Counted from the first letter of the stretch, positions 1 to 44,600 are shown. The stretch: DNA of 64,000 bases from a virus (IMGVR_UViG_3300044971_003552:618-64617); one strand, 5' to 3'. The notes: generated by a model not told the origin, from the letters alone. Numbers and translations are program-made.

Positions 1-143
1 CGATACTCAGTATGTCCAATCTTCACAATCATCAACTTACCCTTGGGCTTATCCTCAACCCTACGAACCTCACCACGGAAGTTCTCACCCTTATAGGTAA
101 ACTCCACCCAATCATACCGCTGGGGCAACACAATGTTACTCAT
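1..143 (-). CDS. small hypothetical protein, partial (MSNIVLPQRYDWVEFTYKGENFRGEVRRVEDK..., SH3/KOW-like beta pattern)
   Basis: Manual translation; ATG at 143 with purine-rich RBS and upstream promoter at 190-218; runs off the window edge. Confidence 0.6.
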   Translation of the reverse strand, partial: MSNIVLPQRYDWVEFTYKGENFRGEVRRVEDKPKGKLMIVKIGHTEY

Positions 144-189
144 CTTTTCCTCTTGGTTACTGGTCATCTTCCCTATACCTATTATCGAC

Positions 190-218
190 ATTCTACCACA
201 TCATCCGTTAGTCTGCAA
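190..218 (-). promoter_or_regulatory. sigma70-type promoter TTGCAG-N17-TAGAAT
   Basis: Read directly on the minus strand; followed by the GTCGATA motif. Confidence 0.6.
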
Positions 219-220
219 TA

Positions 221-319
221 CCTTACATTATCGTAAGGTTGCAAGTTGTTGCGTCATAAGGAGTTACATCAAATCGGGGCGGTCGCGTTTTCCCTAAGTC
301 CTTATAGGATAACGCTTTA
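221..319. repeat. array element R1: CCTTAC-N6-GTAAGG palindrome (221-238) plus paired inverted-repeat sites (242-266, 295-319)
   Basis: caagttgtt-gcgtcat-aaggagtta ... taagtcctt-ataggat-aacgcttta; offset 53 bp. Confidence 0.85.
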
Positions 320-354
320 GGTCAACTGCTATATGTTTGTGCAGCAGTGTGCAT

Positions 355-729
355 TTATTCATCACTCTTGAAGCTGAACGGGCTGAGTTCCAAGTGAGCG
401 ACCGCACCATACTGTTTGGTCAGTTCCTCGACACGTTCACGCGAACCCGGCTTACCAACCGGAACGATCATGGTGTCATCACCACCCACATAGCGGGGGT
501 CAGCCTTTTCCTTGCGAGTCTTTCCAAGATTCTTCAAGGCAGTACGATTGAACTTGATAACCTTTTCACTCACGATATAACGCTTCTGGTCAGTCACACC
601 GTAGACGTAATCGGTATCTTCTGTGATTCGATCATCTGGGATTTCCACGAACATCGGCACCGCGATACCCTTGAAGATCATACGGGCTTGACGCTTGGCA
701 TTTTCGATGATGGGATACTTGGTTTTCAT
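355..729 (-). CDS. hypothetical protein, 124 aa (MKTKYPIIEN...), copy A
   Basis: ORF track 355..798; start moved to ATG 729 because the promoter lies at 771-798; near-identical paralog at 1235-1609. Confidence 0.85.
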   Translation of the reverse strand: MKTKYPIIENAKRQARMIFKGIAVPMFVEIPDDRITEDTDYVYGVTDQKRYIVSEKVIKFNRTALKNLGKTRKEKADPRYVGGDDTMIVPVGKPGSRERVEELTKQYGAVAHLELSPFSFKSDE

Positions 730-770
730 TGTCTTTTCTCTCTTAGGGTCTATCGTTTTCTTGTTCTTGG

Positions 771-798
771 ATTCTATCAAAAATTTTGTACTTGTCAA
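771..798 (-). promoter_or_regulatory. sigma70-type promoter TTGACA-N16-TAGAAT
   Basis: Direct reading of the minus strand. Confidence 0.65.
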
Positions 799-814
799 TC
801 CCCTCTAATAGGGG

Positions 815-1018
815 TCACATTCTCCATTCCACAAACTTGAGAACGCACACCTTTCCAGGATACTTTGCATCGATATACTTCTGTGCAGTAGTCTTGCTAT
901 TGTCTGTAGCAGAGCAACACTGAACAATCGTACCGTCGATTGAAACGATCCAAATCCTACGCTTCCGAATCTTGGGAAGCGAACCGATGAAACCATTCAC
1001 ACTCATAACCTTTTCCAT
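815..1018 (-). CDS. small hypothetical protein (MEKVMSVNGFIGSLPK...)
   Basis: ORF track 815..1075; start moved to ATG 1018, downstream of a consensus promoter, with GAGAG RBS. Confidence 0.75.
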   Translation of the reverse strand: MEKVMSVNGFIGSLPKIRKRRIWIVSIDGTIVQCCSATDNSKTTAQKYIDAKYPGKVCVLKFVEWRM

Positions 1019-1046
1019 TTTCAACTCTCTCTTTCTTTCTGTCACC

Positions 1047-1075
1047 ATTATACAAGTATTATCGTCATTTGTCAA
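1047..1075 (-). promoter_or_regulatory. perfect sigma70 consensus promoter TTGACA-N17-TATAAT
   Basis: Minus strand reads TTGACAaatgacgataatacttgTATAAT. Confidence 0.85.
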
Positions 1076-1097
1076 TAGCTTAGGCCAGAAAAACTTT

Positions 1098-1199
1098 CCT
1101 TACAATGTCGTAAGGTTGTCGTAAGTCATTACCCCACAAGTACTTACGCTTCGCGGGGCGGGCCGCGTTTGCCCTAAGTCGTTATAGGGTAACGCTTTA
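1098..1199. repeat. array element R2: CCTTAC-N6-GTAAGG (1098-1115) plus paired inverted-repeat sites (1122-1146, 1175-1199)
   Basis: taagtcatt-accccac-aagtactta ... taagtcgtt-atagggt-aacgcttta; offset 53 bp. Confidence 0.9.
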
Positions 1200-1234
1200 G
1201 GTTAACTGCTGTACTTTTGTGCAGTAGTGATCAT

Positions 1235-1609
1235 TCATTCATCGCTCTTGAAGCTGAACGGGCTGATTTCCAGATGAGCAACCGCTCCATACTGCTTGGT
1301 CAGTTCTTCGACACGTTCACGACTTCCCGGCTTGCCAACCGGAACGATCATGGTATCCTCACCCCCCACATATCGGGGGTCAGCCTTTTCCTTGCGAACT
1401 TTGCCAATGTTCTTCAGTGCGGTACGATTGAACTTGAGAACCTTTTCCGAAACGACGTATCGCTTCTGGTCAGTCACGCCGTAAACGTAATCGGTATCTT
1501 CAGTGATTCGATCATCGGGAATCTCGACGAGCATCGGCACAGCGATACCCTTGAAGATCATACGGGCTTGACGCTTGGCATTTTCGATGATGGGATACTT
1601 GGTTTTCAT
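1235..1609 (-). CDS. hypothetical protein, 124 aa (MKTKYPIIEN...), copy B
   Basis: 7 conservative aa differences from copy A; promoter TTGATA-N17-TAGAAT at 1651-1679. Confidence 0.85.
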   Translation of the reverse strand: MKTKYPIIENAKRQARMIFKGIAVPMLVEIPDDRITEDTDYVYGVTDQKRYVVSEKVLKFNRTALKNIGKVRKEKADPRYVGGEDTMIVPVGKPGSRERVEELTKQYGAVAHLEISPFSFKSDE

Positions 1610-1675
1610 TTTCTTTTTCTCTCTAGGGTCTATCGTTCTCTTGTTCGTGGATTCTATCAACAATTCTTTTTCCTA

Positions 1676-1885
1676 TCAACCCCCACTGTGGGTGGGTCGA
1701 TAGGTGCAAGGATTGCCGTACACAAGAATTGCTAGAGTCAATTTATCGTCCGAAAAATATGCGTTCATGCTTTCGGTTACGGTGACTTCCCACACATTAC
1801 CCTCATCGTACTCCCAGCCTACGATTTTTCCAACCTTTTGCTCTTTTCCCCACATGAACGATACCATGTCACCAATTTCAAACAT
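1676..1885 (-). CDS. small hypothetical protein, KOW/SH3-like (MFEIGDMVSF...VGKIVG)
   Basis: ORF track; promoter TTGCAA-N17-TATAAT at 1926-1954. Confidence 0.7.
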   Translation of the reverse strand: MFEIGDMVSFMWGKEQKVGKIVGWEYDEGNVWEVTVTESMNAYFSDDKLTLAILVYGNPCTYRPTHSGG

Positions 1886-2017
1886 TCTTTTCTCTCTTTC
1901 TTTCTTCTCTATCTCTTATATCGACATTATACCACAGCTTTCTTGAGTTTGCAAGAGAAATCCAGAGATTTTATTGTCAAGAGATTTTGACAAAACTTTT
2001 CGTCATTTCTTTTGGGC

Positions 2018-2034
2018 TTGGCACACCATTTGCT
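2018..2034 (+). promoter_or_regulatory. sigma54 (-24/-12)-like site TTGGCACACCATTTGCT
   Basis: Matches TGGCAC-N5-TTGCW spacing; second copy on the minus strand at 4170-4186. Confidence 0.45.
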
Positions 2035-2043
2035 AAGTTGTCG

Positions 2044-2121
2044 TAAAGTCTTATGTGGCAAGCACTTACGTCGATCCCGGCCCGCCCGCCTTGCCCTAAG
2101 TGCTTTAGGGTCAAGGACTTA
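2044..2121. repeat. array element R3: paired inverted-repeat sites (2044-2068, 2097-2121)
   Basis: taaagtctt-atgtggc-aagcactta ... taagtgctt-tagggtc-aaggactta; offset 53 bp. Confidence 0.9.
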
Positions 2122-2125
2122 CGGA

Positions 2126-2443
2126 TCAGTATACCAGATTCATATCAGCTACCGTTACCCCATCCGTATATGGTGTACCATCGTCCAGATACCATTCGCC
2201 CTTGCGTTGATACACACGTACAGGTGAATACTGATTGATTCTATCCTTAGTGGTACTCGTATACCATCCGCCCGTGTTGAGCGTAGCTGAGTTATCAGGA
2301 TGAATCTTTACCACATAGGTACTATGCAGCATAATCCCTACGCTACCATCAGGAAGAATCTCTGCATAGGTATTGTTGCCAACCTTGCGAGTATCCTTAT
2401 TAGTCTTACCACGAACCATCTTTACTGCTTCGAAGTGTGTCAT
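2126..2443 (-). CDS. hypothetical phage protein, 105 aa
   Basis: ORF track; AAGGGA RBS; stop codon 4 bp from element R3. Confidence 0.8.
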   Translation of the reverse strand: MTHFEAVKMVRGKTNKDTRKVGNNTYAEILPDGSVGIMLHSTYVVKIHPDNSATLNTGGWYTSTTKDRINQYSPVRVYQRKGEWYLDDGTPYTDGVTVADMNLVY

Positions 2444-2464
2444 GTCATTTCCCTTAATGTGTAA

Positions 2465-2584
2465 TTAGTCGTTGTCATGCAGGATAGATTGAATAGCGTT
2501 ACCAATCTCATGTGCAGTGTAGGATATGAAGCCAGCACCGCAAATCAAAGCAAACAGCTGAAAATATTCGATAGTCGTAATCAT
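2465..2584 (-). CDS. 39-aa hydrophobic peptide MITTIEYFQLFALICGAGFISYTAHEIGNAIQSILHDND
   Basis: Manual translation (below ORF-track cutoff); promoter TTGACG-N17-TAGAAT at 2613-2641; paralog at 3944-4057. Confidence 0.75.
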   Translation of the reverse strand: MITTIEYFQLFALICGAGFISYTAHEIGNAIQSILHDND

Positions 2585-2661
2585 TGGGATTCCTTTTCTT
2601 TCTTGTGTTCTTATTCTACACCTATTATCGACCAACGTCAAGCTCTAGCAATAGTTTTCTT

Positions 2662-2761
2662 CCTTACAATATCGTAAGGTTCATAAGCCTATATGAGATA
2701 AGGACTTACGTCAGATGCGGGCGCCCGGCCTCGCCCTAAGTGTTTATAGGGTAAGGCTTTA
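2662..2761. repeat. array element R4: CCTTAC-N6-GTAAGG (2662-2679) plus paired inverted-repeat sites (2684-2708, 2737-2761)
   Basis: taagcctat-atgagat-aaggactta ... taagtgttt-atagggt-aaggcttta; offset 53 bp. Confidence 0.9.
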
Positions 2762-2763
2762 GG

Positions 2764-2979
2764 TCATGAGGCGTGAATGAAGACCTTTTCGCTTACTGTA
2801 CGGTTGGTCACCGTCACAATCCAATTCTTTCCACTACCATCCTCACGCATGATACCGTTGATAAGGCCCACATGAGAATTACCCCTTGGGTCGATCACAC
2901 AGTGATACTTGCCAGCTCGCATAGCAGCGAAAATCTTGTCAAGGTTGTTCGTCACAGTTTTATAGTTAGTCTGAAGCAT
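2764..2979 (-). CDS. small hypothetical protein, 71 aa
   Basis: ORF track; GAGG RBS; promoter TTGACA-N18-TAGAAT at 3004-3033; stop abuts R4. Confidence 0.8.
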   Translation of the reverse strand: MLQTNYKTVTNNLDKIFAAMRAGKYHCVIDPRGNSHVGLINGIMREDGSGKNWIVTVTNRTVSEKVFIHAS

Positions 2980-3029
2980 CTTTTTTCCTCTTGGGTTGAT
3001 TCTATTCTACCGTATACGCTATGGTGGTG

Positions 3030-3254
3030 TCAATTCCAATATTCGCCAGAATCCAATTCCTCTTGAGAGACGAATTCATCTCGCTCCATCCAATTACGAC
3101 ATCTTTGCCCTTTATAGTGATTGTGATCTTCGACCAGATATCGTCCGTTGTTGATTTCCACCACCACACCAGACGAATCCGGGGAGTCGAAAACAAAATT
3201 GAAGTAAACCGTATCTCCAACATTCACAGAATTCACAGCATCCATTTTCATCAT
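3030..3254 (-). CDS. small hypothetical protein, KOW/SH3-like (VNVGDTVYF...GVVVEI)
   Basis: ORF track; GAGGAG RBS; promoter TTGACA-N18-TATAAT at 3274-3303. Confidence 0.75.
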   Translation of the reverse strand: MMKMDAVNSVNVGDTVYFNFVFDSPDSSGVVVEINNGRYLVEDHNHYKGQRCRNWMERDEFVSQEELDSGEYWN

Positions 3255-3307
3255 CTCCTCTTGTGTTGGTTCTATTATACAGTATCGGCTATTCCGTTGT
3301 CAATACC

Positions 3308-3547
3308 TTAGTAGTAAAGAAAATCGTTGAGAATGTTTCCGTCCCGGTCAACGGTGATTCCCTCACCTTCGTCGCCCATCGGGAAAAAGTCTCCGATATG
3401 AAACCGTCCCGAATCATACTCGTCGTTCAGAGCCTCAGCGAGCAACTCGCCGCCGATACGAGCAATTCCAACCAAGGTATCGGGGCTGGTCGAATCAGCA
3501 CCATAGAGGAAGTTTTCGAGTTCGTTGCGGTTGTTGATGGTGATCAT
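3308..3547 (-). CDS. small acidic hypothetical protein (MITINNRNELENFLYG...)
   Basis: ORF track 3308..3589; start moved to ATG 3547 with GAGGA RBS, downstream of TATAAT at 3588-3593. Confidence 0.75.
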   Translation of the reverse strand: MITINNRNELENFLYGADSTSPDTLVGIARIGGELLAEALNDEYDSGRFHIGDFFPMGDEGEGITVDRDGNILNDFLYY

Positions 3548-3679
3548 TTTCTTGTCCTCTTGTTGTCTCTTGTTCTCTTGTGCTTTCATTATACAGTATT
3601 TATCGACGCTTTCAAGAGAAATCTTTGGAATTTTTGAAATATAATTTCATGCCAAACAAAATCTTTTTTATATTTGTTG

Positions 3680-3757
3680 TAAGTCTATACGTGGCAAGTA
3701 CTTATGTCGAATTCGGCCCGCCCGGCAAATCGTAAGTGCTTACCTCATAAGGCTTTA
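3680..3757. repeat. array element R5: paired inverted-repeat sites (3680-3704, 3733-3757)
   Basis: taagtctat-acgtggc-aagtactta ... taagtgctt-acctcat-aaggcttta; offset 53 bp. Confidence 0.9.
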
Positions 3758-3761
3758 CGTC

Positions 3762-3911
3762 TTATAGAATCGTACCATCGCCACGAATGCGATACATGAT
3801 ACCCCCGATACTGTACAGGCTTATACCCTCTCCCATGTGCTGTACAAACGTAGCAGAATAACCGTGTCGAGCAACTAGGCGGCGAATCGTGTTTTGAACT
3901 TGAATGGTCAT
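3762..3911 (-). CDS. 49-aa hypothetical protein MTIQVQNTIRRLVARHGYSATFVQHMGEG...
   Basis: Manual translation; AAGGA RBS; stop 4 bp from R5. Confidence 0.7.
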   Translation of the reverse strand: MTIQVQNTIRRLVARHGYSATFVQHMGEGISLYSIGGIMYRIRGDGTIL

Positions 3912-3943
3912 TGGTTTGTCCTTGTTTCAGAGAGATAATTCTC

Positions 3944-4057
3944 TCAGTCGTGAAGAATGGAATAAACAGCATTACCCACTTCGTGTGCAGTGTACGAGAC
4001 AAAACCAGCAAAAGCAATCAGAGCAAACAGTTGAAAGTATTCGATAGTCGTAATCAT
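3944..4057 (-). CDS. 37-aa hydrophobic peptide MITTIEYFQLFALIAFAGFVSYTAHEVGNAVYSILHD
   Basis: Manual translation; GAGGA RBS; promoter TTGCAA-N16-TATAAT at 4106-4133; paralog of 2465-2584. Confidence 0.75.
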   Translation of the reverse strand: MITTIEYFQLFALIAFAGFVSYTAHEVGNAVYSILHD

Positions 4058-4144
4058 TTTCTTGTCCTCTTATTCTCTCTTGTTCTCTCTTATTCTTATA
4101 TCGACATTATACAGAGTATTCTGTAGGTTGCAAGCGGAAAGTTT

Positions 4145-4279
4145 CCTTACGATTTCGTAAGGTTTCTAGAGCAAATATCATGCCAATTCGATAACTCGTC
4201 GTAAACCTTTACCATATAAGAACTTACGTTCAATCTGGCGGAGCATATTTACCCTAAGTTGTTACCATATATAGAGTTA
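4145..4279. repeat. array element R6: CCTTAC-N6-GTAAGG (4145-4162) plus paired inverted-repeat sites (4202-4226, 4255-4279)
   Basis: taaaccttt-accatat-aagaactta ... taagttgtt-accatat-atagagtta; offset 53 bp; the two 7-bp spacers are identical. Confidence 0.85.
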
Positions 4280-4358
4280 GGGGGATTTTCTGTTTTAGAA
4301 CTGCCATTTCGACAGTTTCCTAAAACCGCAGGGAGGTACCAACATACCAAGGACCAAT

Positions 4359-5510
4359 TTAATTAAATGTACTAGCTAAACCATCCCTTTTGGCTTTCTT
4401 CTTTGCTTGTTTCTTTCGAAGCCTACTAATTCTCTTTTTAGATATTTCTGGATATTTGTTTCTTAAATCTAATTTCTTTTCCCAATCATATACGCTATAA
4501 CTAACTTTCTTTCCGTTCCAACTTTGATTAGGGTTCCATCTACCCTCTTGTTTGAAATATTCGCTTATTTTATATAGTTCGCCCCTATACTCCAACCATA
4601 TCTGCTCAAATTCTTCAGGAAAAGACCCTCGCCTATCTAACATATTATCTCTGTGTGTTCCTTTGGCTAAATGATCCGAATTATAGCATCGAGCATTATT
4701 ACATAAATGACGTACTAATTCTGGATACTCTCCATACTTTTCCCAATATGCAACTCTGTGTTTAGTAAAATATTTTCTTTCTCCGTTAACTGTGACATCC
4801 ATTCTTCCATATCCGCTTTTATGATTGGTTAGTGTTTCTTTACAAGCAGATCCGTTATATGATTTATCGTTACTCAACGTAAAATTTTTAATATAAGTAT
4901 CTTTAGTAATGGCTTTTTCCAACCATAGTCTAATATTTTCCTCTTTCACAGGTTTCCAGTAGTTTAACAAAGACAAAAAACTATACTTATTTAGATGCCA
5001 GCACTCCTTCTGCATAATACTATCAATCCCACACTCTTCTATTATGGCATAATGTACAGAGTATTTGCTATTGTTATATAAGTTTTGTAAATTTTTATTA
5101 TAGTGTTTATTATTTTTTAATTCATTCTCATGAGCTGATAACCTATCGCCCATACTAACACTACTACCAATATAAATCTTTATGTCATTTACTAATTTAT
5201 GCTTATCAGGACTGGTTTTATTGTAGTTCCATATAAAATATATAGCGTATACTCCACTAATATTTTTAATTTTACTGAAATCTCTAATTTCTGTCCACGA
5301 AGATATTTGATTATGATTTATTTTAGAAGCTATATTTCTACGCCTTTTAATAGAATTTAACGTACTTTTTGTTATTCCATATTTTTTATACAGATCACGA
5401 GCAGCAACTCCTGCTTCATAATCTTTTATTAAGTCTCTTTCCTGTGTTCCTGTCAGGATAACTTTTCTTTTTCTTTTTTTCTTGTCTATGCTACCTTTTG
5501 GTCTACACAT
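4359..5510 (-). CDS. putative homing endonuclease with GIY-YIG and HNH domains
   Basis: SGVYAIY...IYIGSS...RL..H (GIY-YIG); HRVAY...VRHLCNNARCYNSDHL...N (HNH); N-terminal HTH-like segment. Confidence 0.8.
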   Translation of the reverse strand: MCRPKGSIDKKKRKRKVILTGTQERDLIKDYEAGVAARDLYKKYGITKSTLNSIKRRRNIASKINHNQISSWTEIRDFSKIKNISGVYAIYFIWNYNKTSPDKHKLVNDIKIYIGSSVSMGDRLSAHENELKNNKHYNKNLQNLYNNSKYSVHYAIIEECGIDSIMQKECWHLNKYSFLSLLNYWKPVKEENIRLWLEKAITKDTYIKNFTLSNDKSYNGSACKETLTNHKSGYGRMDVTVNGERKYFTKHRVAYWEKYGEYPELVRHLCNNARCYNSDHLAKGTHRDNMLDRRGSFPEEFEQIWLEYRGELYKISEYFKQEGRWNPNQSWNGKKVSYSVYDWEKKLDLRNKYPEISKKRISRLRKKQAKKKAKRDGLASTFN

Positions 5511-7552: not shown

Positions 7553-7801
7553 TCAGCCAGCAGAAGAAACGTCATTTGAAACGTTGGATACTACCTTGTT
7601 CTTAACTGGACGACCTCTCGGCTTCTTTAGTGCTAGCTTGCGTCTTTGGCGACGAACCATAGCTGTTGTAACGTTTTGTCCGGTAATTTGACTAAGCTTT
7701 GCGGCTAGAGCCTCGTCACAAAGAATAGTATGATTTTCTCTAATAAAATCAGTTTCCGAACTTGACCATTTTTTGTAAGTTATCATTTTCTCACTTTCCA
7801 T
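7553..7801 (-). CDS. small basic DNA-binding-like protein (WS..E..FI helix pattern, KPRGRP AT-hook-like motif)
   Basis: ORF track; motif reading. Confidence 0.65.
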   Translation of the reverse strand: MESEKMITYKKWSSSETDFIRENHTILCDEALAAKLSQITGQNVTTAMVRRQRRKLALKKPRGRPVKNKVVSNVSNDVSSAG

Positions 7802-7872: not shown

Positions 7873-8028
7873 ATGAACAATAATCCAATAAATATTCTAG
7901 ATTCAATATTGGAAGTTAAAGCATCGGGAGTCGATGTTACAGCAGACCTCTTATTAAACGAAGGCAAAAGCATAGCTCAACTATTATATGACCAAGAAAA
8001 ATCAGAAAATCCTCCAGAAAACTCCTAA
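7873..8028 (+). CDS. small hypothetical protein
   Basis: ATG 7873 after AAGGAG RBS. Confidence 0.55.
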   Translation: MNNNPINILDSILEVKASGVDVTADLLLNEGKSIAQLLYDQEKSENPPENS

Positions 8029-8644
8029 ATTACCTCATGGGGTAACAGAAGAGCAATTTTTGACCGTATTAGATAATATTAGCAAAAGACTAGGTCATAA
8101 ATTTAAATTTGGCTATCATAGTTTTGACGATATGAAACAGCAAGCTGCTGTTTTTGCTTTAGAAGGTCTAGAAAAATACGATAACAAAAGACCTCTTGAA
8201 AATTTCTTATGGACCCACGTTAGAAATAGACTCTTTAATTACAAAAGAGACAACTACCAAAGACCAGATAAGCCGTGTTTAACTTGTCCATTATATGATG
8301 CTCATTGCAAAGCTTCTACAAATCAATGCTTAGAATATTCTGACAAAAGCGAATGCGAATTATATTCGGCCTGGGAGAAAAGAAACAACAGAAAAAAGAA
8401 TATTATGAAACCCGTAGGCATGGACGATCTTGCGGAAAAATCTACAAAATCAATTGTAGAACATGATATTCCAGAAAGTATTTTTAATCAACAAATCATA
8501 GACCTATTAGACAAGCATATTCCCGCACCATATCGTGAATCTTATCTAAGACTAAAATACGGAGAAAAGATTTACAAAGCAGAAATGAACAAACTACACG
8601 AAATTATACAAGATATTTTAAGAGAACATAATTACGAGTATTAA
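7988..8644 (+). CDS. phage sigma70-family (region 2) sigma-factor-like protein with Cys-rich insertion
   Basis: DDMKQQAAVFALEGLEKYD..RPLENFLWTHVRNRLFNYKR resembles sigma region 2; CLTCPLYDAHC...C...C insert. Confidence 0.7.
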   Translation: MTKKNQKILQKTPKLPHGVTEEQFLTVLDNISKRLGHKFKFGYHSFDDMKQQAAVFALEGLEKYDNKRPLENFLWTHVRNRLFNYKRDNYQRPDKPCLTCPLYDAHCKASTNQCLEYSDKSECELYSAWEKRNNRKKNIMKPVGMDDLAEKSTKSIVEHDIPESIFNQQIIDLLDKHIPAPYRESYLRLKYGEKIYKAEMNKLHEIIQDILREHNYEY

Positions 8645-32187: not shown

Positions 32188-32631
32188 ATGCCAGCGGCTG
32201 AATATAATTTTAGCATAGAAAAAGGTACAGCTTTCGTCATCGCTTTTGAATATAGGGATGATCTTCAAATTCCTATCGATATTACTAATTGGTGTGCCAG
32301 AATACGCTGGATAGAAGACCAGAATACAAATCCAACTATTAGAACATTCATAACGAATACTCAAACCAATGATTACTCTTTTGTTATAGATCCTAAGCTT
32401 GGTAAAATAATACTAAAAATACCAGCATCAGCTACAGCCGCTTATAATTTTAATAGTGCTCTTTATGACTTTGAACTTCAAGAACCAAATGATCTTTATA
32501 GTGGAGGAGGAAAAAAGATTTTTAGAATCTTACAAGGAACCGTGTCATTGGTAGCCAGGAACGTACCTGGAAGCGATGCTTTTGCTTGCGATACCAATGT
32601 TCAGAATGATTGTGGAACATGTAGCCCATGA
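32188..32631 (+). CDS. virion structural/adaptor protein (paralog of 20365-20763)
   Basis: YNFSIEKGTAF...DITNWCAR...YDFEL...LYSGGG. Confidence 0.65.
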   Translation: MPAAEYNFSIEKGTAFVIAFEYRDDLQIPIDITNWCARIRWIEDQNTNPTIRTFITNTQTNDYSFVIDPKLGKIILKIPASATAAYNFNSALYDFELQEPNDLYSGGGKKIFRILQGTVSLVARNVPGSDAFACDTNVQNDCGTCSP

Positions 32632-35600
32632 GTATTGTACGAGTAGAAGAAGATATACAGCCACTAAAATATTTAGTAGTTACACAACAAAGAGATCCAG
32701 AGAGTGTTATCACTACTAATGTAGTTATATCCGATACTCGTAATAATAGAATTAATCTTGTTTCCATTGAAAAAGGTCTCCAAGGAGATATTGGTCTCGT
32801 CGGCCCCAAAGGAGACCCTGGAAAAGATGGTGTTATTTTTGATGTATTACCAATTAACAGCGGTGGTACAAATAATACTATATTTAGTAGTGGACACGTC
32901 ATTTATTATGATGGGTCTAAATTATCTAGCAGTAATTATACCATACAAGACATATTAAATAATGCTGGTAACAGTAGTAATCTCACAGGTATTATTGCAG
33001 AGTCGGGTTTATATGTAAATTTAGTTAATAATAATGCTAGATTAGGAGTAAAAACTGGAGGAGGATTAACAATAAATGAACAGAATACTATTGTTGTTGA
33101 TGATACAATAGTTAGAAAAGTTGAACTTAATTTAGGAAGCATCGAAGGAGTGGTTCCTATTGAAAAAGGAGGAACAAATAATCAACTATTCAATAGTAAC
33201 AGATTGTTATATTATGATGGATTTAAGATAGCCTCGTTCCCCCTTGCAACAGGACGCATACTATTAAGTGGAACAACTATAGATATAGTAGCGGGATCTG
33301 GACTAGTTGGAGGAGGATTAACATCTTTGCCGTCAGGTTCTGTTGTTTTAAATATTGGTGGATCTTCCGATATTCTGGTAGAGACTAATTCCATATCTTT
33401 GAGCAATACCGGGATTGCAGGAACATATAATAAAATAACTACTGATGAGAAAGGACGTGTCGTATCTGGTTCTAATTTATCTGCTTCTGACATTATTAGT
33501 ATTCTAAATTATACTCCTTGGCATATTGGTAATGATGGCGAAAACTCTGGTCTTGATGCTGATTTATTGGACGGTCAACAAGGATCATATTATTTAGATT
33601 TATCAAATAGTACTGGTATTCTTAGTGCTGATAGTTTACCAGTACAATCAGCTCCGGGTCTATATACTAAAGTACAGGTAAACAATAAAGGAATTGTGAT
33701 AAATGGACAAGATATTAATTATGGAGACATAGTTAATGCTCTAGGGTATAGGCCAGTATCAGCTACAGGAGATATTATATACGGCCCACTAACTATTAAT
33801 GGAAATACTACTCTTGATGGTAATGACCTAGTTGTTAAAGATAATTTACCATTACTGGGCACAAATTCCCCGTTTATACTACCTAATGAGCCTAGAGGCT
33901 TCAGTTTTATGTATGGGGGACTTACTCCTCAAACTGGTATATTGGCTTACTATCCCGGTGAAAGAGAATTAAGATTAATAACTAACATAGGAGCTACTGG
34001 TATAGTAGACGCTGGAAGTGGGGATAATTTTAATAATGAAGTAGATGGAGGAGACGCTAATTCTGTTTATGTGATTGGAAATATTACTGGTGACATGAAT
34101 ATAGTACTACTTCGTTCAGTAGCAGATAGCTTATATGTTAGTCGATTTGCTGATCAAACCATTAGCGGTAATAAAACTTTTGCAGACCCTCTTGCTGTAA
34201 GAGGTCAAATTTCTGTAATTCCTAATATTAATCAATCAACTCCTCCATTTAATGTTGGAGCAAATACAAGAATGGTGGAGAATCTTAATGTCGATCTTCT
34301 CCATGGCAAAAATTTAGATTATTATAATGATGCTTCTAACATGACTGGGCTTTTTAATTATGAAAAAGTTCAGTTTAATAGTCTCGAAGGAACCATTGGT
34401 TTTATACCTCGTTTTGATAATAGAACTAATAATCCCAGTAGAACTATTAGCGATTCTGTGATTCAGCAAACCGGACAAATTGTAAGAGTAAATAATAATT
34501 TTAATTTTTCTGTTGGAACTTCTAACACTGGATCATTTGATGCAAATCGTTCCGCTCTCATTGGACAAAACAACAGAATTATAGGAGATAACTCGCTTGC
34601 TGTCGGTTCAAATAATTTAGTTAATGCTAATAACAGCATAGCCCTAAATTCAAAATCACAAGCTCTCACTGATAATTCTATAGCTGCCGGGAATCATGGT
34701 TACACTTGGTCTGAAAATCAAGTAAGTTTTGGGTCTTTCAGAGAGCTTAATAATATATCTACAGCTCAAGGTCAACACTCTACTATTACTCTGGGTCTTA
34801 GCGGAGTACAAACTGATGGAGCTTGGGTAAATATGAGCCCGTCCATCAATATTCCAAAAAATAAAACACTATCATATACATTAGAAGTATTGATGAACAA
34901 AGCTGCTGGCACGGGAGCTGCTTTATTTACATACGAAAGTGGTATTATTAAAAATTCAACATTCCGTAATCCAAACAACCCGTCTTTTCTAACTAATATT
35001 ACTTCGATATTAAAAGATGCTACAAAAAGAGAAATATATAACGACTCACAAAGAAGAAGATATTATTATCATTTTAATTTAGACAATAATAATTTTATAC
35101 AGAACTTAGATGTTACAGCTCCAGACATTAAAACATTAGATATTAAACCATATAACACAGAATCTTTATACAAATATATTCCACAGTATATTGAATCCTA
35201 TGGAACATACGAAAAAACTAACGATGGAGAACTGGTCTTAAATATTCCTAAGCCAATAACATATGGTTGGTTCTATCAAAATTCAGGAAGTCCAGACATA
35301 ATAGTTAAATCATACTTTCATGGTATGACTACGGGGTCTGTCTCACGCCTCAATTTCACTTCCGCAACAAAACACACCCCGTTTTCAAAGCAGTATCAAG
35401 TATCAAGCATTATCAGTGATACCCTCTTTTCTGTTAAAGAAACATCTTGGTCTGGAAGATTAACTAACGACGAACTAATACTAGATCCACAAGTCGTATC
35501 TGATATAGATTCTAAAAATAGTATAATAACAAATGCTGGATTTTTATATACTAATTCTCCGGATATCTATAATGTTCCAACAAACATTACTAATGTTTTA

Positions 35601-38600
35601 CATACTGGTATGTATGTCAGATATTATCCACACGGATCAGGCTATTCATATGTAGTTCCTCAAACTGGTAAAATTATAGCAAAAACTAGTAGTTCGATTA
35701 CTTTTGATACTCCGTTTACAGGGCTTACAATATTTAATCAGTCTATTAACACTCAAGCAGTATTAGAATTTACACAATATACTAGACATGTTTTTGATTC
35801 GTCTAAAACAGTACATCTTAATATTTCTGGCTATGGACAGCAATCATTAACTAGCTTATCCGGAGCGTATGCGGCATCATACTGTGGACAACCAACATAC
35901 TCTATTAAATTATCTGGAATACCTAATAATATATTTACTGATACTATAGCCACAATAAGGCCAGCCACAACTAATAGTGGAACAGTTTCTTTGGTTTCTC
36001 ATAGAAATATTAGCGGAACATATACTAGAGATGCAACTCAATACAAAAAATATGAAGGTATTTATATAAGACAACCTTCTATTAGTGGAAATAGCAGAAT
36101 TTCTATTTATAACCAAAATTTAGAACCGATAGAGCTACCCTCTGTTCCATTCAACTATAGCTTTGTCTGTGGATACGGAGATGATGATAACGGATCTTTT
36201 GAAATATATAAATCTGGACTATATAGCTATCTAAAATTTAAATCAGTATCAGGCATAGACATTTCTTTATCTTGCGGTCAAGATTTTGATTATGTTTATA
36301 AAGTAGCTAATTTAATGGATGTTTCATATATTAAAAATTATTTATATGGAATAGATTATGATTTACAACAAAGTGGATGCTATTTCTATAGTCAATATCC
36401 AGTAAATAGTGGTGCAGGATATGTGTTTTACCCAGATACTTTAGAAACTTCGGACCTTACAGCTCTGCCACTGGGTTTGCTTCCAGATAAAACATATTTT
36501 CCAGTTAATATAAAATTAGTTAATAGTTCATATATATTTGATTTAAGTAAATCGTCTGGTGGACAACCAATTACTATTATTAATGACAATAATAGAAAGT
36601 CCTCATATAAAATTTTTCCAAGAATACGAGACGCTTATAATAAAGATATATACAATATACGTATTAAAGTTTTTGATATGTCTGGCAGAAATTATGAAAA
36701 ACCATTCTCTATACACATAGATCCTGTTAACGTCAGAACTCACATCAGGAATTCTATACCAGACCAATCGGCAATAATAAATGAACTTTTTACTTATACT
36801 ATACCTAATAATACTTTCCCTAATAAAACAAAAATTTCATCAGTTAGACTTTCTGATGGTAGAGTTTTACCTCAATGGCTTGCCTTTGATCAATCCAAAC
36901 AAGCATTTAGCGGTACTCCTTTAGCTGCAAATTCTGGAACAATAGAATTATTAGTTAAGGCTACGGGGGTTGATCTGATTGTATCTGATGTGTTTAAGTT
37001 GTCTGTCACAGATAGTTATCCATCGATTTCAAACTACATTGTTGATCCAGTATTATCATTTGATATAAAAAACATCTTTCTGTCTAGCATATCTGTTCCT
37101 CAAAATGCTTCTTATGATACACACGTTGGTAAATTATCTGCCGACGGAGGATATAATCCTTATTTAATTTTTAAAACCTCATCTAATAGTTTTAATGGAT
37201 ATTCTCATTTTGGAGGAAATGTTTTGACGGAATGTTCGGCATCTATTAGTCAGTTTTCCACCGTTACATTATCTGGTATTATTCCTTATCTATCTGGGCA
37301 TAACATACTAGTTAGTGGTACGAATAATCAGTCTCAGCAAATAGTAAGTAAGATTGTACCGTCTTCTATTTTTAATATTACTGTGTCTTCTGGTTCTAAC
37401 TTTTTATTATTTAATAATCCAAATAGTAATTATACTGGTATAATTTTTAGTGGTAATAAAATTTTTAGCAATATTCAAAATTGGGACAATAATTACTATG
37501 CTACAAATGTTACAACTACTGGTATTTATCTTAATAGAAATTTTACTAATCTTAATAGCGAATCAACAGGACTAACCTGTTTTACTAGTGGTTATAATAT
37601 ACTGTTAAATTCTAATGTTAATTTTACAGATAATATTATTGGAATTTTTAGTACCCCAATTAATGAATCTGGTTTTTATTATATTGATCAGCTCAAAAAC
37701 TTTACTACAAATTATCAATCAGCTACAAGGTGTCCAGTTACATTATCTAATAATGATAATATTAAGGGTTTTGATACCGAAACAAACGAATATATTATAG
37801 AAAAAGGATATTATTCTACTGGTTTAATTTCATTTTATACAGACGTTGGCTATAGTGATATTTCTATTAGCAGTCCAGAGCATTTAAATTTCGAAAATGA
37901 TGAAAGTAGCGTTTATTTAAGATTCTTATCAAGAAATACTGGGGTTTTACCCACAAGTCAGGGATATTCTAAGATAAGCGGAATAGCTCGGTCATCTTTT
38001 AATGTTAATAATGGATACTTCTTCCCCAACTCCCAACCCTATGCAACAGGATCTGTGCTAGTTAATGTTGACAAAAATCATGGATACAAACTCGCAAACA
38101 ATAATATCATTAATCAGATACCTGTACAATTTTTAGATACTCAGGAAAATAATAGCAATCGTAAACCAAAGAATAATCTTTTTGACATAGATGATGTTGA
38201 AGGAAATACTATATATGTTAAAGATAAAAATAATTATCTATTAAAAGAAATTGGTAAACCAGATTATTTTGAACAAGCGATATCTGGCATCTATACTACT
38301 AACGGTTTTGGCTTTAGTGCTGCTTTTGTACACAATGACTACAAAATTTATGACTTAGATTACGGAGGTTCTCCAATATGGCCTCAAGATAAAATAATAG
38401 ATGTTAATTCCTCTCTTGGGTCATCTAGTTCGAGCTTTGTTTCTAATTCTAGATTACTAGATTTTACTCAGGGATTCTTTTTTAATGGAACAGTAGCTAG
38501 AAGCGGTTCTCACATAGTATACAATGGAACTTTTCCATCTTTAGTATATTCTGGATATGTTATGTCTGTATTTAGTACCGACCCGCTTTGGCCGACAACC

Positions 38601-41600
38601 GGAATAACAGTTGGGTATAACGGATACAATTATTCTCCATTAAGTGTTTCTTTTAATACCGGTATTCCTAAAGTTTTCAATACCCACGGTCTTGGTTCAA
38701 CAGTTAGTCCAATTAATATCCAGTGTACAGGATTGATTAGTCAGTCTACATACGGAGATATGAGAATAGCGTTACTAGGATATGACTATCAAATAGTAAA
38801 TATATCTGGTTCTTATTCTCCTCCGTCTGGTTCAAATTTTGTAATTTCAAAAACGAATCAAGACTCATCTGAAACAACATTATTTTCTAGTTCTAATAAC
38901 TCAAATATTAATATTCAGGTTACTGGTTGGCCCAAAGAAATTATTAGTTTAAAACTTTACAAAAACAATGATCAGCTAAACTTTTCTACCTTAAATATAA
39001 ACATAAATTCTACATTTCATCCAATAAACATTGGTAAGAGACTTGATATACTTAATGCAATAGATAATATTAATACAGACTATGTAGATGCTATGTTTTA
39101 TTTTAAACCTATTATTACTCTTGATCAAAGAGTCTGTTTAAATAATAAATATCGACAACCAGATAATAGAGTATTTTTCAATGGTAATCAAATCACTATT
39201 CACAATCTGTCTACTCCTAGGTCTTATTTGAATACTAATGATCAAATTAAAATTTTAAGCTTGAATAGTGGTATTGATTTTATTGATTCTGCAGTTAGTA
39301 GAAACTGTAGAGTAGTTGGCACAGGAGTAAACAATACAGCTATTTATTGTATTCCTAATAATGGTCCTAAAATAGTGTCTCCTAATTCTATATATAATAG
39401 TGATGATCTATGGAGAAGAAACTCATTAAGATATGCTCATTCTTTCGGAATTAGAGCCAATCAGGAATTACCAAATACAGGAATTATATCATTTGTGGGA
39501 GCTGTTTCTGGATACTTTTCTATTCCGCAAACTAATAATTTGTACCACCATACCTATGGAGGATATACCGCTAATTGGCCAATGGACCCTTACGGAAAGA
39601 GGGTGTCCGCTCCTCTAACAGGCGTCTTTTCTATACAAAGTAACTCTTCTCAATGTGTTTCTGGTACTTTGTGCTTAAGCATTAAGGGGTTCTCTAATAC
39701 AAATTTCAACAGTATCCCGGACTTAACAAATAGATCAGGTATAGGAAAACAACCACATGCTATAGATACGGATGCTGTTAAAGGATATATTAGACCATGG
39801 GGAACAGCAAATAAAAAATACTATTTTGATTTCTCGGACAATGCACCAGAATTGAATGGATTATATTACATTAATGATAAAACAGATCCATACAATATTA
39901 CTATTAATATACCATACAATATTAATTACTTAGGTAGAAGTGGGTTGGTTTATATTATAGACAGCGATTATAATATAAAGTCTAATATAAATCCTAATAT
40001 AGATAACTCTTTTGTCTTATCAGAATCTAATGCTTCGGTTGTTACGGATACGATTCCTCCACAGCCAGTAGCTTTAATTGATTACAAAATCAATTCCTAT
40101 AGTTTAAAATCAAAAAGATGGAAACATCTAGTACATTTTAATAATCCTACCAGCATACCATATAGTGGCTACAATATAACATTTGATTCTTCACAGCAGC
40201 AAGTTTCACAATTACTATATTTGAATCCAGATAAAATAAATATTTTAAATATAGATTATTCTATGGATTATGGCGAATCATATACTCAATTAGATCAAAA
40301 TAAGATAAAAATAAAAACCACAGATGAAAACCCTATTTATCTTCGAATACAGACTAAAGACGGTTCTCAGAAATGGTCACAATCCCTATTGTCTTCTGCT
40401 CCCAAAATTAATATTCATGGACTGAATACATATTCTATAGACACTAATACTATTTCTTATAATAATCAAAATAAAATATGGACAATTACAGCTATTATTG
40501 ATAATATAAAAAATATAACAACTAATAGAGACATTTCTGTTGTCGCGTCGGATGAAACTGGAACAGACAGTACAAACTTGATCATTGATTTGACAAAAAT
40601 TCCAGAAATAGCTGTTCCTAAAGTTACTTATACCTATGTTAATAGTCCTATTCCATGGTCCGTTAATTATGATATAAAATATCTGCCAGATCCATACTTA
40701 ATTGTTATGTCGGGTTATCCTGGTCCTAGTTTTAATATAAATAATGAGACATTCAATAATAGCACAGGTGTAAAAATTCTTTACGGAAATGCCGGATCAG
40801 TTACTGGGGTATTCAATACTACACTATCAGTTAAAGACTATATTACTGGTGAAAATTTATCATCTCAAACTGGAGTTATTAGAGTATTGGCTATGAACCA
40901 GACTAAGCCTGGCTATACCCTGGATCCCATAGGATTGCCTGATGATATATATCTAAATATAGATAACGACAATAGCTCTTCATCATTTTATTTTTATGTG
41001 GATGCTATAAATACATCACAAACTAGTTTGCTAGTAACCTTAACACAAGATGTTGGATATACTAGAAATATTATAACAGAATATAGTAACGTATCAAATA
41101 GATATAAAATCACGGTCAGTTTAGTTGGCTCAGCAGGATATTACTCCAATAAATCTATTACAGTATCATTATTACAACCACAAGTTAACAGTGAGGATGT
41201 AGAGGTCTGGGTTCCATACACCTATACAAAACTAGTTAATATTACTTTGTATAAAACTTTAACTATAGATCGTTATACTCTTCCTCAACCTTTGTCTTTC
41301 GATAAGCAAGATACTTGGTTTTTACAATTCTATTTATTAGGAGGTATTTTTTCTCATAGACCAGATCAAGCCCCGTCAGTTAGATTATCAAACCTACCTA
41401 ATAAAGGAACATATCCTAATGACCCATTAGAGTATAACATTAGATATGAATACGATAATGCAGATAAAAGATGGAAAGTTATTGCTACAGGAAGATCAGA
41501 TAATTTTGCTAGAATGACAGATAGCTTAGGGGTTAAATCTATCAAGATTTTTGCTGAAGACAGTATCAACACTGCTGCCGACACAATTAATCTTACTTTT

Positions 41601-44600
41601 ACTCAAAATAGATATTTAACAAACTTACAACCAGTTACATATTCTATTCCTAATGAATTTTACCAAACGACTTTTGATGTCAGACAAGCTTCCGCCAACA
41701 ACAGTATTATGATTAGTCTTCCTGCTAACCTAAGAGAAGATACCATTGATTTAAGTCTGGTTAACCAACAATACGACCCGGATCTACTGCTACATCAGTT
41801 TTCATACTCTGGTTCTCCGATTTATGATAAGTGGGATACTTCTATAAGTTTTGGTAATATTAATACTTCCTTAAATGATAATCAATTATCATCTATAACT
41901 GTGAGATGCAAGGGTATATCATCTGATAAAATATATGCCATAGGTAAACTTAGTTTGATGGAATTAGACAGTTTAACTTTACCAGGATTACCCATAAAGA
42001 TCACAGGAGTAGCTCGACCCAACTATTCGGCAAAGGAAGGGTCTCCGTGGAGAATTACTTTTAAGACATTGCACGGTCTAGAAAATCCTAATTTTCCTCC
42101 TACAATTCTATTGTCTGGTTTGCCAACAGTATGTTCCGGATATTATCCTTCTTTACCTCTAGAACAACAAAATGGATGCTTAGAATCTAGAAATTGGAGT
42201 CCGTCAGATAAATCATGGAATTTTGCCTTTACCGGTTTTCCATTGTGTGGTATCGATGGAGTGAAACCATTTTCAATAACAGCCATAGACACAGATACTA
42301 TTCAAAATATTTCCTTAAGTTTTGATACTATCAATGCTGCTATTGATTACACATCATTAGATGAGGAAGGATTTGTGCATCCTGTCCCTCAGATAGTGCC
42401 TGTGGGGCAGGTTGCGGATCCTATACAATTGTCTCCCCGTTGCTCAGAACCTCCCATAAATATTTCCTATCGTTTTGGACCTCAGAACAGAGCAACATGT
42501 CCTATACCAACAGGCATTACTGGCTGGATAGTATCAGCTTCCGGAGGAAATAATCTATTACCCTCGGGGCTATCCTATACTATCAGTTTTCCTGGAGGTA
42601 GTCCAAAGAGACCATGGAATAATCTAGGCAGCGGCACTTTAACGATTACTGGAGATCCTTTATTTTTTGCTAGCGGTACAGAGTATGCTGAAAAGCTTAT
42701 CTTGACTGTTTTTGACGCTAGAGGCAAGTCGATACAAAAAATTATTAAGTTTACAGATATATCGTCTCCTAATCCACCTTCTCCTATTGATCTTCCTATT
42801 TATTTTGATAGCGAAAAACCTATTTACACTCGTAGACTACCAGGACAAAATAATATAACAAACCCTAGTGGAACAACACCAATAGATTGGCAAAGTTATC
42901 CAGATTTACCATTGGTGTATTGGCCAGCGGCGAATGCTAATAATTTAAAATGTGACAGTATATTACCACACAACCAGTGTCTCGTAACGTCTTTTGCTTA
43001 TAGTGGGGCTAATTTTCAAACTTTTGACTTCAGAGTATTCATAAAACCAGAAAGACCTATTCTTAGTGCTGGAAGTACAGTGTATGTAGAATTTGATAAT
43101 AATCCCGGACATAACCGGAATAATAGATATCAATTATCCAGTCAGGGTAATTTTCCTAATATACAATATTTTATAACAGCAGATGGTCATGATTTAGGAA
43201 CGGGCATAGGCAGACTGGTTCAGGAAAGAACCCCAAGATTTAATACTCAAAATATCCAAAAGTTTTTAGGCAATACAGACATAACAACAACAAGATCATT
43301 GCTAGGTTGTGGCAGCTTTGCTTCAAAGTCCAGTGTGCAGGAGGCTGGTTTTGGTCTCTTTGGAAGGATGTATCCAAGTATACAGGCTACAATTCCTAGC
43401 GGAGAGGTATTTTCTTCACAGATAGAAGGAAATCCACCTCCTGTTCCTTTAGCAAATCTTTCTTTGTCTACATTAGATAATATGTATACAAGTGGAGTTC
43501 CACAGATATCAACTGTTAAAACTTTTGATTGCTGGCAAACGGGTTACTTAAGAATAAGCGGAATACTTTTACCCTCTCCGTCAGTTGAACTAACAGACCC
43601 TGCTCCTGCCGCTGAGGCACCATTTGCATATAATGGACAACAATATTTTATTGGTAGTCGTTGCGTATATGGTAGTAATCCAGATGATAGAAATTTAATA
43701 GGAAATAAAAGAGATGTTAATATAGACTATAAACTTAAAAATATACTGTCTAATTCTACTTATGCTCAGGGATCAGTAGGACCAAATCAAGCAATATCAT
43801 TTAATCATACCGAAAACACAGGAACAGTATTTTCTTTATTTATTAATAATACTCCATCTATTTTTCCAACATATAGATCAAATGCTATAAGATATGCTGA
43901 AAATGAGTACTTTTGGGTTCACAAGGGTGGAACAAAAAATCAAAGTATCACACAAAATAGTTTTCCTCCGGTTGTCATTGGTGGACTAAAAGATATTCAT
44001 GCTCTAAGTGGGACAAGTATTTCTGGTTACAGTATTACAGCAGTAGGAGGATATATTCCTTTTAATGAGTATTCAACTCCAATTCCTTATTATAGGTTGC
44101 CCGATGGATCAAACTGGTCAACATCTAACTATCCTCCATTTATTACAGGTGTTATACAGAGTAGAGTTGCTGTTGAAAACTCAATAACTTACAGCCACTC
44201 TGGCTCGTCCAATTCTCAGTATCAATTCATACAGTCTAGCTTATTAAGTAATCCATATAATATAGAAGTGGGAGATACTATCTATATTAGCTTCCCAGGC
44301 ACAGACATTCCAGCACAAACTATTGCTCTGGGAGTGAACAACATAAGCAACAATACATTATTAATCCCGTACTCTAGAGTTGATAAACCAGCTATCCTCA
44401 ATGGAGCTGCGAAATTTTCATTTTTATCTAGCGTAACCGGTATAGAATCAAGCAGTATTTTTATTAAACACAAAAATTTACCATTAGTTACGGGAGATAG
44501 TATTGATGTTGTTTGGAGTTCGGGCAGTTCTTTTAATAGTATTGCTCCTTTAACAAATTCTATGACAGTAAGTTCTTTTAATAGTACATCTGCTGTTGTA

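Follow-up and report, generated by a model that had tools for sequence, protein, structure and literature searches.

Mycobacteriophage L5 stoperators are single asymmetric 13-bp sites that act on elongation in a temperate phage, and the pdif sites of the Xer system are 28 bp long, with two 11-bp arms, a 6-bp spacer and alternating orientation. Here, we analyse a 78-bp element that occurs in six copies among the small early genes of a virus, IMGVR_UViG_3300044971_003552. The stretch of DNA analysed, called the window below, is 64,000 nt long and corresponds to bases 618-64617 of a 64,617-b IMG/VR contig (CheckV completeness, 43 %). All positions refer to the window unless the contig is named. 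Two described systems appear closest to this locus. PeSL, according to the available parts of two reports, are repeated regulatory cassettes that are exchange points between otherwise unrelated sequences (PMC2839356; PMC4122927). In the available part of a report on phage phi29, protein p4 binds two regions, each made up of two imperfect inverted repeats with half-sites 15 bp apart, p4 and p6 together hold the early promoter A2c in a closed complex, and the early promoters, which the host polymerase transcribes, are switched off (PMC3100819). We propose that uncultured freshwater jumbo phages of one clade have a standardised early-promoter cassette whose upstream half, the 78-bp unit, serves as a protein-bound DNA control site, and we put the probability of this at about 0.55.

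The window was searched with the pattern TAAGTNNTT-N7-AANNACTTA, allowing up to two mismatches, and 100 shuffled sequences were used as the control. There were 13 matches, compared with a mean of 1.46 and a maximum of 5 in the shuffles, and 12 of the 13 form the six pairs listed in Table 1. The offset within a pair is exactly 53 bp in all six; the remaining match, at 15122, is unpaired. A seventh pair, again with a 53-bp offset, is found to the left of the window, at positions 104 and 157 of the contig. When a profile of the whole family (described below) was applied to the window, it recovered the six elements and nothing else (nhmmer). With 12 of 13 matches in pairs and only 1.46 matches expected, the six double sites at a fixed offset, first pointed out in an examination of this DNA without database searches (hereafter the sequence-only reading), are real. 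The 25-bp consensus given there is correct for the pairs and their spacing, but only two of the 12 paired sites match it perfectly, one has a single mismatch and nine have two, mostly in the outer arms. Likewise, the linkers are 28 bp long and GC-rich as described, but they are not free sequence, as about ten positions are 79-89 % conserved family-wide, around a core composed of G and C alone. Every small gene in bases 1-4300 is encoded on the minus strand, and the plus strand on which the sites were originally described is therefore antisense to these genes. The stop codons at 2126, 2764 and 3762 are 4, 2 and 4 nt, respectively, from an element. These distances had been recorded correctly, as had the same-strand small genes with promoters of their own, since each unit has a sigma70-like promoter.

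The element belongs to a large family. An exact 19-base composite pattern matched at least 119 stretches of viral contigs. A profile was built from 147 unique matches and used to search approximately 1.2 Mb of related IMG/VR phage loci, a scan that the sequence-only reading had suggested, and this yielded 691 elements, 507 of which are unique. The exact register is retained, with a length of 78 bp, in 469 of the unique elements. Five complete relatives (G001 to G005) were available. Their genomes are 229-244 kb and 100 % complete, four of them with terminal repeats, and they include 15, 17, 26, 18 and 19 elements, of which 14, 17, 25, 15 and 18, respectively, are in the same orientation. The number of sites per complete genome is 26-40, compared with 3-8 for a reversed control pattern. 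In the two genomes for which the positions were listed, the sites make up a single early-gene array, with 26 of 26 sites between 112.7 and 130.7 kb in G001 and 39 of 40 sites in the array of G003.

The stretch is present in 24 lake-water DNA runs, and no RNA run containing it was found among the runs listed. The terminase shares only about 25 % identity with terminases of Bacillus phages, and there is therefore no cultured relative. Neither a megablast search of bases 1-4400 against cultured phages nor a tblastn search with the conserved 124-aa early protein produced a match. A scan of genome contigs returned six matches, one that is there by chance and five that are phage fragments inside metagenome-assembled genome (MAG) bins. 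These five contigs (L134-L136, L138 and L139) carry several elements each, and the bins are labelled Rhodobacteraceae, Alphaproteobacteria, Methylococcaceae and Hyphomicrobium. As these taxa are inconsistent, the fragments were probably mis-binned and give no host signal. No published description of the 78-bp element was found in the literature searched, which was limited in library and terms.

Each unit comprises two 25-bp palindromes in which 5-base half-sites are set 15 bp apart, with strong inner and weak outer arms. Each position of the inner arms is 81-100 % conserved in the family. In the outer arms, TAA/TTA is kept and positions 4 and 5 vary (GT, AG, AC or CC), mirrored about the centre of the linker, and the two free positions in each arm and the 7-base centres vary freely. 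Covariation was assessed in 345 representatives that are <85 % identical, with the expectation calculated from column composition, for the pairings arm1:arm2, arm3:arm4, arm1:arm4, arm2:arm3 and loop:loop and for twelve registers of a linker hairpin. None was detected on either strand, the observed Watson-Crick or wobble pairing being at or slightly below expectation at every variable position, and an earlier set selected by pattern agrees. Changes compatible with wobble pairing are biased towards the minus strand in site 1 but towards the plus strand in site 2. This opposite bias points to mirrored DNA half-sites and not to one RNA. Judged from conservation, the palindromy is best explained as a consequence of conserved half-sites, like those in the sites of dimeric DNA-binding proteins.

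Read in the sense direction, a stop codon is followed by site 2, the linker and site 1, and then by an A/T-rich tract and a near-consensus sigma70 promoter. We take the A/T-rich tract, which lies between site 1 and the -35 box, to resemble an UP element. In the window array, 22 sigma70-like promoter sites were found where 9.1 were expected, the nine with the highest scores are all on the minus strand, and ten minus-strand promoters serve the eleven genes. For the family, a strong promoter had to reach a sigma70-type score of 10 or more (out of 14) and to lie no further than 150 nt from the element. Such a promoter is found beyond site 1 on the sense strand for 379 of the 469 elements, compared with 53 of 469 on the antisense side and 60 of 469 on the upstream sense side.

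The gap between the element and the -35 box takes preferred lengths. Among 209 clusters, it peaks at 19-21, 29-32, 39-43 and 51-53 nt, with sparse troughs, and the best period is approximately 10.75 bp (resultant 0.50). Measured to a CGAT[AT] anchor in the promoter spacer, found in 302 of 348 representatives, the peaks are at 30-31, 39-42, 50-53, 62-66 and 72-75 nt and the troughs among the first four of these are nearly empty. The same length classes are shared by unrelated spacer sequences, and common descent therefore does not explain the quantisation. The invariant 53-bp offset and the quantised gap together put the two sites in phase with the promoter along the helix, and such phasing belongs to double-stranded DNA and to proteins that occupy one of its faces. 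The second choice of the sequence-only reading, a phased operator array, is supported by this and is extended by the phasing between element and promoter. In addition, a CCGATA(A/C)T block is conserved at a fixed place in the 17-bp promoter spacers (e.g. 1047-1075 and 2613-2641), which is unusual for a spacer, and this block could serve as a discriminator or as a second operator.

In the control site that we propose, the two palindromes, 53 bp or five helical turns apart, would present the same face of the helix to a sequence-specific dimeric or tetrameric protein, of the dimer-of-dimers type, that binds them as double-stranded DNA. This protein would contact 5-base half-sites two turns apart, and the pattern of conservation suggests that the TT/AA steps between the half-sites would face it via the minor groove. 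The bound module would probably bend the DNA upstream of the A/T tract, in register with the promoter, and would control initiation by the host RNA polymerase at the next early unit. Coordinated shut-off or tuning of early genes would be the likeliest role, and we infer this in preference to activation because promoters this close to consensus already look maximal. Insulation of the unit from read-through may be another function of the module, and the approximately 15-26 copies of the cassette also act as homology joints through which early genes are duplicated, lost or swapped.

A more speculative extension, to which we give rather low odds, is that one regulator, made by the phage, delivered in the virion or provided by the host, reads all 30-50 half-site pairs, bridges neighbouring elements about 1 kb apart, gathers the whole 18-25-kb array into a looped nucleoprotein body and switches about twenty host-takeover units on or off jointly, with the same joints serving to plug genes in or out by homology. 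If this were true, the looped array with its homology joints would be the phage counterpart of an integron, needing no integrase.

A number of observations weigh against a protein-bound control site. A recognised DNA-binding domain is absent from the 35 proteins of the window and of one relative's array that were scanned with Pfam and PHROGs, apart from a weak match to a PHROG annotated as DNA binding protein on the N-terminus of an HNH homing-endonuclease open reading frame (ORF), and an HU/IHF-type protein was found in none of the five complete genomes. The phasing blurs beyond approximately 55-65 nt, and only two of the six gaps in the window (42 and 64 nt) fall in family peaks, with those of 23, 46, 68 and 89 nt outside them. 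Flush packing of A/T-tract modules of about 10-11 bp could partly contribute to the quantisation of the gap. Among 174 strong sense promoters in six arrays, only 80 have an element within 130 nt upstream, so the element is not a general part of every early promoter. The strong internal promoters of the window that lack an element (Table 1) likewise indicate that it is dispensable for the presence of a consensus promoter. Finally, the upstream stop codon is 2-3 nt from the element in 111 of 389 cases, in 28 the stop codon of the upstream gene is the TAA of the site itself, and a role tied to the end of the upstream gene is possible.

The phi29 p4 model (PF05464) matched none of the five complete genomes, and the same model matched no control genome either. 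AlphaFold modelled the 124-aa early protein with low confidence (pLDDT 61, pTM 0.24). The gaps in the window cassettes hold extra modules, one being a sigma54-like box and the other the CCTTAC-N6-GTAAGG hairpin. In the space from site 1 to the sigma70 promoter, sequences that agree exactly with the -24/-12 consensus of sigma54-type promoters occur in both orientations, at 2019-2034 (plus strand) and 4170-4185 (minus strand). The five complete genomes have 14 such exact matches, compared with 0 for the reversed control, and about nine are in early arrays. However, a reading of the element as a sigma54 enhancer (upstream activating sequence) is not supported, as the box is beside only 21 of 147 elements, in either orientation, and Sigma54_activat (PF00158) was found in none of the five complete genomes.

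Gene-order maps reveal that the backbone is collinear, and all five complete genomes agree in the gene order of the distal half of the array, though this half is full of elements. In the proximal half, which is where the window lies, the backbone is kept, the promoter-proximal genes differ and duplications are present. One of these is in the window, where 221-806 and 1098-1687 are 85 % identical and represent a tandem-type duplication of a unit made up of hairpin, element, 124-aa gene and promoter. In six arrays with 657 ends of homologous blocks, the density of ends is 11.6 per kb in elements, 7.9 per kb in other intergenic sequence and 4.0 per kb in genes. After the family-2 gene, the site-2 half of the element is shared and the site-1 half is one of two types that track the type of downstream promoter. 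Contigs from lake runs include joints from promoter to promoter (1931 to 2660 and 1934 to 3610, two runs) and from the flank of an element to an element linker (1117 to 2078 and 1117 to 2718, one run), but these are weak, with short flanks, and may derive from related phages. The breakpoint pattern fits PeSL-like shuffling by homology and not site-specific exchange. Cassette shuffling, which the sequence-only reading had inferred, is retained only in a looser form. Relatives do differ in gene content, at the promoter-proximal genes, and both elements and promoters have an excess of breakpoints; the backbone and the distal half, however, are collinear, and the pattern fits recombination by homology.

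The enriched block ends, the half-elements after the family-2 gene, the duplication, the differing promoter-proximal genes and the lake-contig joints all argue for a different emphasis, in which the selected function is that of PeSL-like homology joints, at which general recombination exchanges, duplicates and deletes early genes, and any regulatory role is secondary. PeSLs of T4-type phages act in this way, in the available parts of the reports (PMC2839356; PMC4122927). We nevertheless regard this as unlikely. Similarity is sufficient for a homology joint, which has no need of a 53-bp offset, of half-sites conserved position by position beside free neighbours, or of phasing with a promoter. 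The distal half of the array has stayed collinear despite its many elements, and enrichment at conserved intergenic islands is partly expected when the neighbouring genes differ.

It is similarly improbable that the element is primarily a protein roadblock or insulator, like a stoperator, where the bound protein halts polymerase arriving from the upstream unit, replaces missing hairpin terminators and shields the next promoter from occlusion. The elements are intergenic, near-uniform in orientation relative to transcription and located right after stop codons, they fold weakly, and the repeat at 1098-1115 is the sole terminator-like match in bases 1-4400, where 3.3 were expected. The L5 repressor sites are a precedent. 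However, a roadblock does not require helical register with the downstream promoter, many gene junctions inside units have a promoter without an element (94 of the 174 promoters), and the near symmetry of the element is not a trait of polar roadblock sites, which are asymmetric.

A function at the RNA level, as a terminator, an RNase III-type processing site, a stabilising 3' structure or a small antisense RNA, is very unlikely. Palindromes can fold and the elements are at the 3' ends of genes. The four window elements that were folded on the sense strand gave z scores from -1.2 to -3.2, and the family mean for whole elements is z=-1.8. Against this, the two site hairpins are weak, with means of -4.2 and -5.1 kcal/mol, the linker has z=+0.19, the stems are not followed by a U-run, and Rfam returned nothing at the gathering threshold for the whole window or at E<=1 for bases 1-4400. 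Covariation is lacking on both strands, the wobble-compatible changes favour opposite strands in the two sites, and phasing with a promoter is a property of DNA. A conserved sequence without covariation and with weak folds gives no support to either an RNA hairpin or an attC-like fold, and the fold put forward by the sequence-only reading (arm1:arm4 with arm2:arm3) is likewise unsupported, with pairing at or below expectation and no excess folding of the linker. A long hairpin with pairing between loop 1 and loop 2 was seen in one window copy and was rejected, as the family has no such pairing. A tRNA-like or small-RNA reading of the element was also dropped, and no tRNAs were found in a scan.

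Site-specific recombination sites that move gene cassettes, whether integron attC-like or Xer/pdif-like, were the lead interpretation of the sequence-only reading and are now barely credible: the 9-bp arms and 7-bp spacer do resemble recombinase core sites, the sites come after stop codons, gene content varies among relatives and a host recombinase is possible, but Phage_integrase (PF00589) has no match in the window, where the absence of a recombinase had been noted correctly, and none above cut-off in the five complete relatives, where the proposed search for a tyrosine recombinase elsewhere gave a single sub-threshold match (24.2 bits, in G004, far from the array), resolvase (serine recombinase) was found in none of the five, no folded structure covaries, the length is fixed at 78 bp (469 of 507), each unit has its own promoter, the genes of the backbone are collinear, and 345 mosaic pairs switch at points scattered over the whole element with no single crossover position, in an analysis confined by construction to the element and its immediate sides.

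The features of the window array are listed in Table 1. The early genes are almost all ORFans relative to Pfam and PHROGs. A gene for a membrane peptide of 37-39 aa is present in two copies (2474-2585 and 3947-4058; 78 % identity). The GC content falls from approximately 44 % in the early array (1-4300) to approximately 33 % in the rest of the phage (4300-64000). A chimeric assembly was ruled out as the source of this step, as several other contigs have the array, a protease (subtilase) gene and the structural genes in synteny. The recurrence of this layout shows that the junction is genuine, and the step at about 4300 is kept in relatives by synteny. An AT-rich, HNH homing-endonuclease-like ORF of 383 aa (4359-5510, minus strand) is located directly upstream, in the sense direction, of the first element, at the GC boundary. 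An 82-aa ORF beside the array (7553-7801, minus strand) has no Pfam match and is conserved in relatives. It contains a PRGRP stretch that resembles an AT-hook, and it is possible that this ORF encodes a small DNA-binding protein. A protein with a weak sigma70 region-2-like match is encoded at 7988-8644 (plus strand). The structural part includes two giant ORFs on the plus strand, at 32628-45197 (4189 aa) and 57316-63999 (>2228 aa).

Table 1. Elements, promoters, genes and inverted repeats of the early array in the window
Feature	Position	Strand	Details
Element 1	242..319	-	Site 1, 242-266; 28-bp linker; site 2, 295-319; nhmmer 54.5 bits; gap to next -35, 23 nt
Element 2	1122..1199	-	Sites 1122-1146 and 1175-1199; nhmmer 62.5 bits; gap to -35, 46 nt; inside the 221-806/1098-1687 duplication
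Element 3	2044..2121	-	Sites 2044-2068 and 2097-2121; nhmmer 72.3 bits; gap to -35, 89 nt; stop of gene 2126-2443 is 4 nt away
Element 4	2684..2761	-	Sites 2684-2708 and 2737-2761; nhmmer 66.8 bits; gap to -35, 42 nt (family peak); stop at 2764 is 2 nt away
Element 5	3680..3757	-	Sites 3680-3704 and 3733-3757; nhmmer 46.1 bits; gap to -35, 64 nt (family peak); stop at 3762 is 4 nt away
Element 6	4202..4279	-	Sites start at 4202 and 4255; nhmmer 47.9 bits; gap to -35, 68 nt; first of the array in the order of transcription; at the 44 %/33 % GC boundary
Sigma70-type promoter after element 1	190..218	-	TTGCAG, 17-nt spacer, TAGAAT
Consensus sigma70 promoter after element 2	1047..1075	-	12/12 matches
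Sigma70 promoter after element 3	1926..1954	-	TG extension
Sigma70 promoter after element 4	2613..2641	-	Promoter scan
Sigma70 promoter after element 5	3588..3615	-	Promoter scan
Sigma70 promoter after element 6	4106..4133	-	Promoter scan
Internal strong promoters without an upstream element	771..798, 1651-1679, 3004-3033, 3274-3303	-	Promoter scan
Inverted repeat CCTTAC-N6-GTAAGG followed by a T-run	1098..1115	-	In the gap from element to promoter; also present at 221-238, 2662-2679 and 4145-4162
Eleven small early genes	355..4057	-	355-729, 815-1018, 1235-1609, 1676-1885, 2126-2443, 2465-2584, 2764-2979, 3030-3254, 3308-3547, 3762-3911, 3944-4057

If the cassette is a control site of the kind proposed, early host-takeover regions in a widespread group of uncultured lake jumbo phages would follow a concrete regulatory grammar that is open to testing, carried by a portable cassette that joins a double operator to an A/T tract and a near-consensus promoter. 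A further prediction is a new regulator, which would bind DNA sequence-specifically at a long recognition site of two turns. The parts, very strong promoters and a defined operator set at phased distances from them, could also serve engineering.

Comparison with the known systems indicates both what is shared and what is particular to this locus. The L5 stoperators are alike in being many copies of one protein site (binding would be the shared property here), in short intergenic spaces and in one orientation. They differ from the elements described here, which are paired palindromes phased with promoters in a seemingly lytic jumbo phage. Integron attC and pdif sites are alike in that they are imperfect inverted repeats after the stop codons of arrayed small genes. 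However, the phages examined here do not encode an IntI-type recombinase (PF00589 above cut-off in none of the five complete genomes), there is no conserved fold with variable length, and attC cassettes are mostly promoterless, whereas 379 of 469 elements precede a strong promoter of their own. Relative to pdif/Xer sites, those described here have a 9-7-9 structure (25 bp), are always paired 53 bp apart and are almost all in one orientation.

The p4-binding regions of phi29, as far as the available part of the source describes them, are similar in having two inverted-repeat sites per region, with short half-sites 15 bp apart, at or upstream of early promoters (PMC3100819). From the same part of that report, the half-site sequence is another one, and there are four sites at one locus, as opposed to 30-50 sites over about 20 promoters here. 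To our knowledge, the GC-rich 28-bp linker has no counterpart in the phi29 p4 system.

The PeSL of T4-type phages, in the available part of the source, share several traits with the cassettes: they are repeated composite motifs in hyperplastic early regions, with tens of copies per genome, they run from a stop codon through an A/T-rich tract and a strong sigma70-like promoter to a Shine-Dalgarno sequence and a small ORFan, and they are found in a plastic region beside ORFans, with indels and replacements at the motifs (PMC2839356). The partner of the promoter in a PeSL is, in that same part, a stable terminating stem-loop with a variable position around the promoter (PMC2839356), whereas the element here is a fixed 78-bp double palindrome that is conserved in sequence, folds weakly and lies upstream of the A/T tract, in register. 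The idea of a mobile regulatory cassette would thus be extended beyond T4-type phages, with a protein site in place of a terminator hairpin as the partner of the promoter. On our analysis, the defining features of attC and pdif sites are lacking, and the cassette would be PeSL-like with respect to genome evolution and a p4-type operator pair with respect to regulation.

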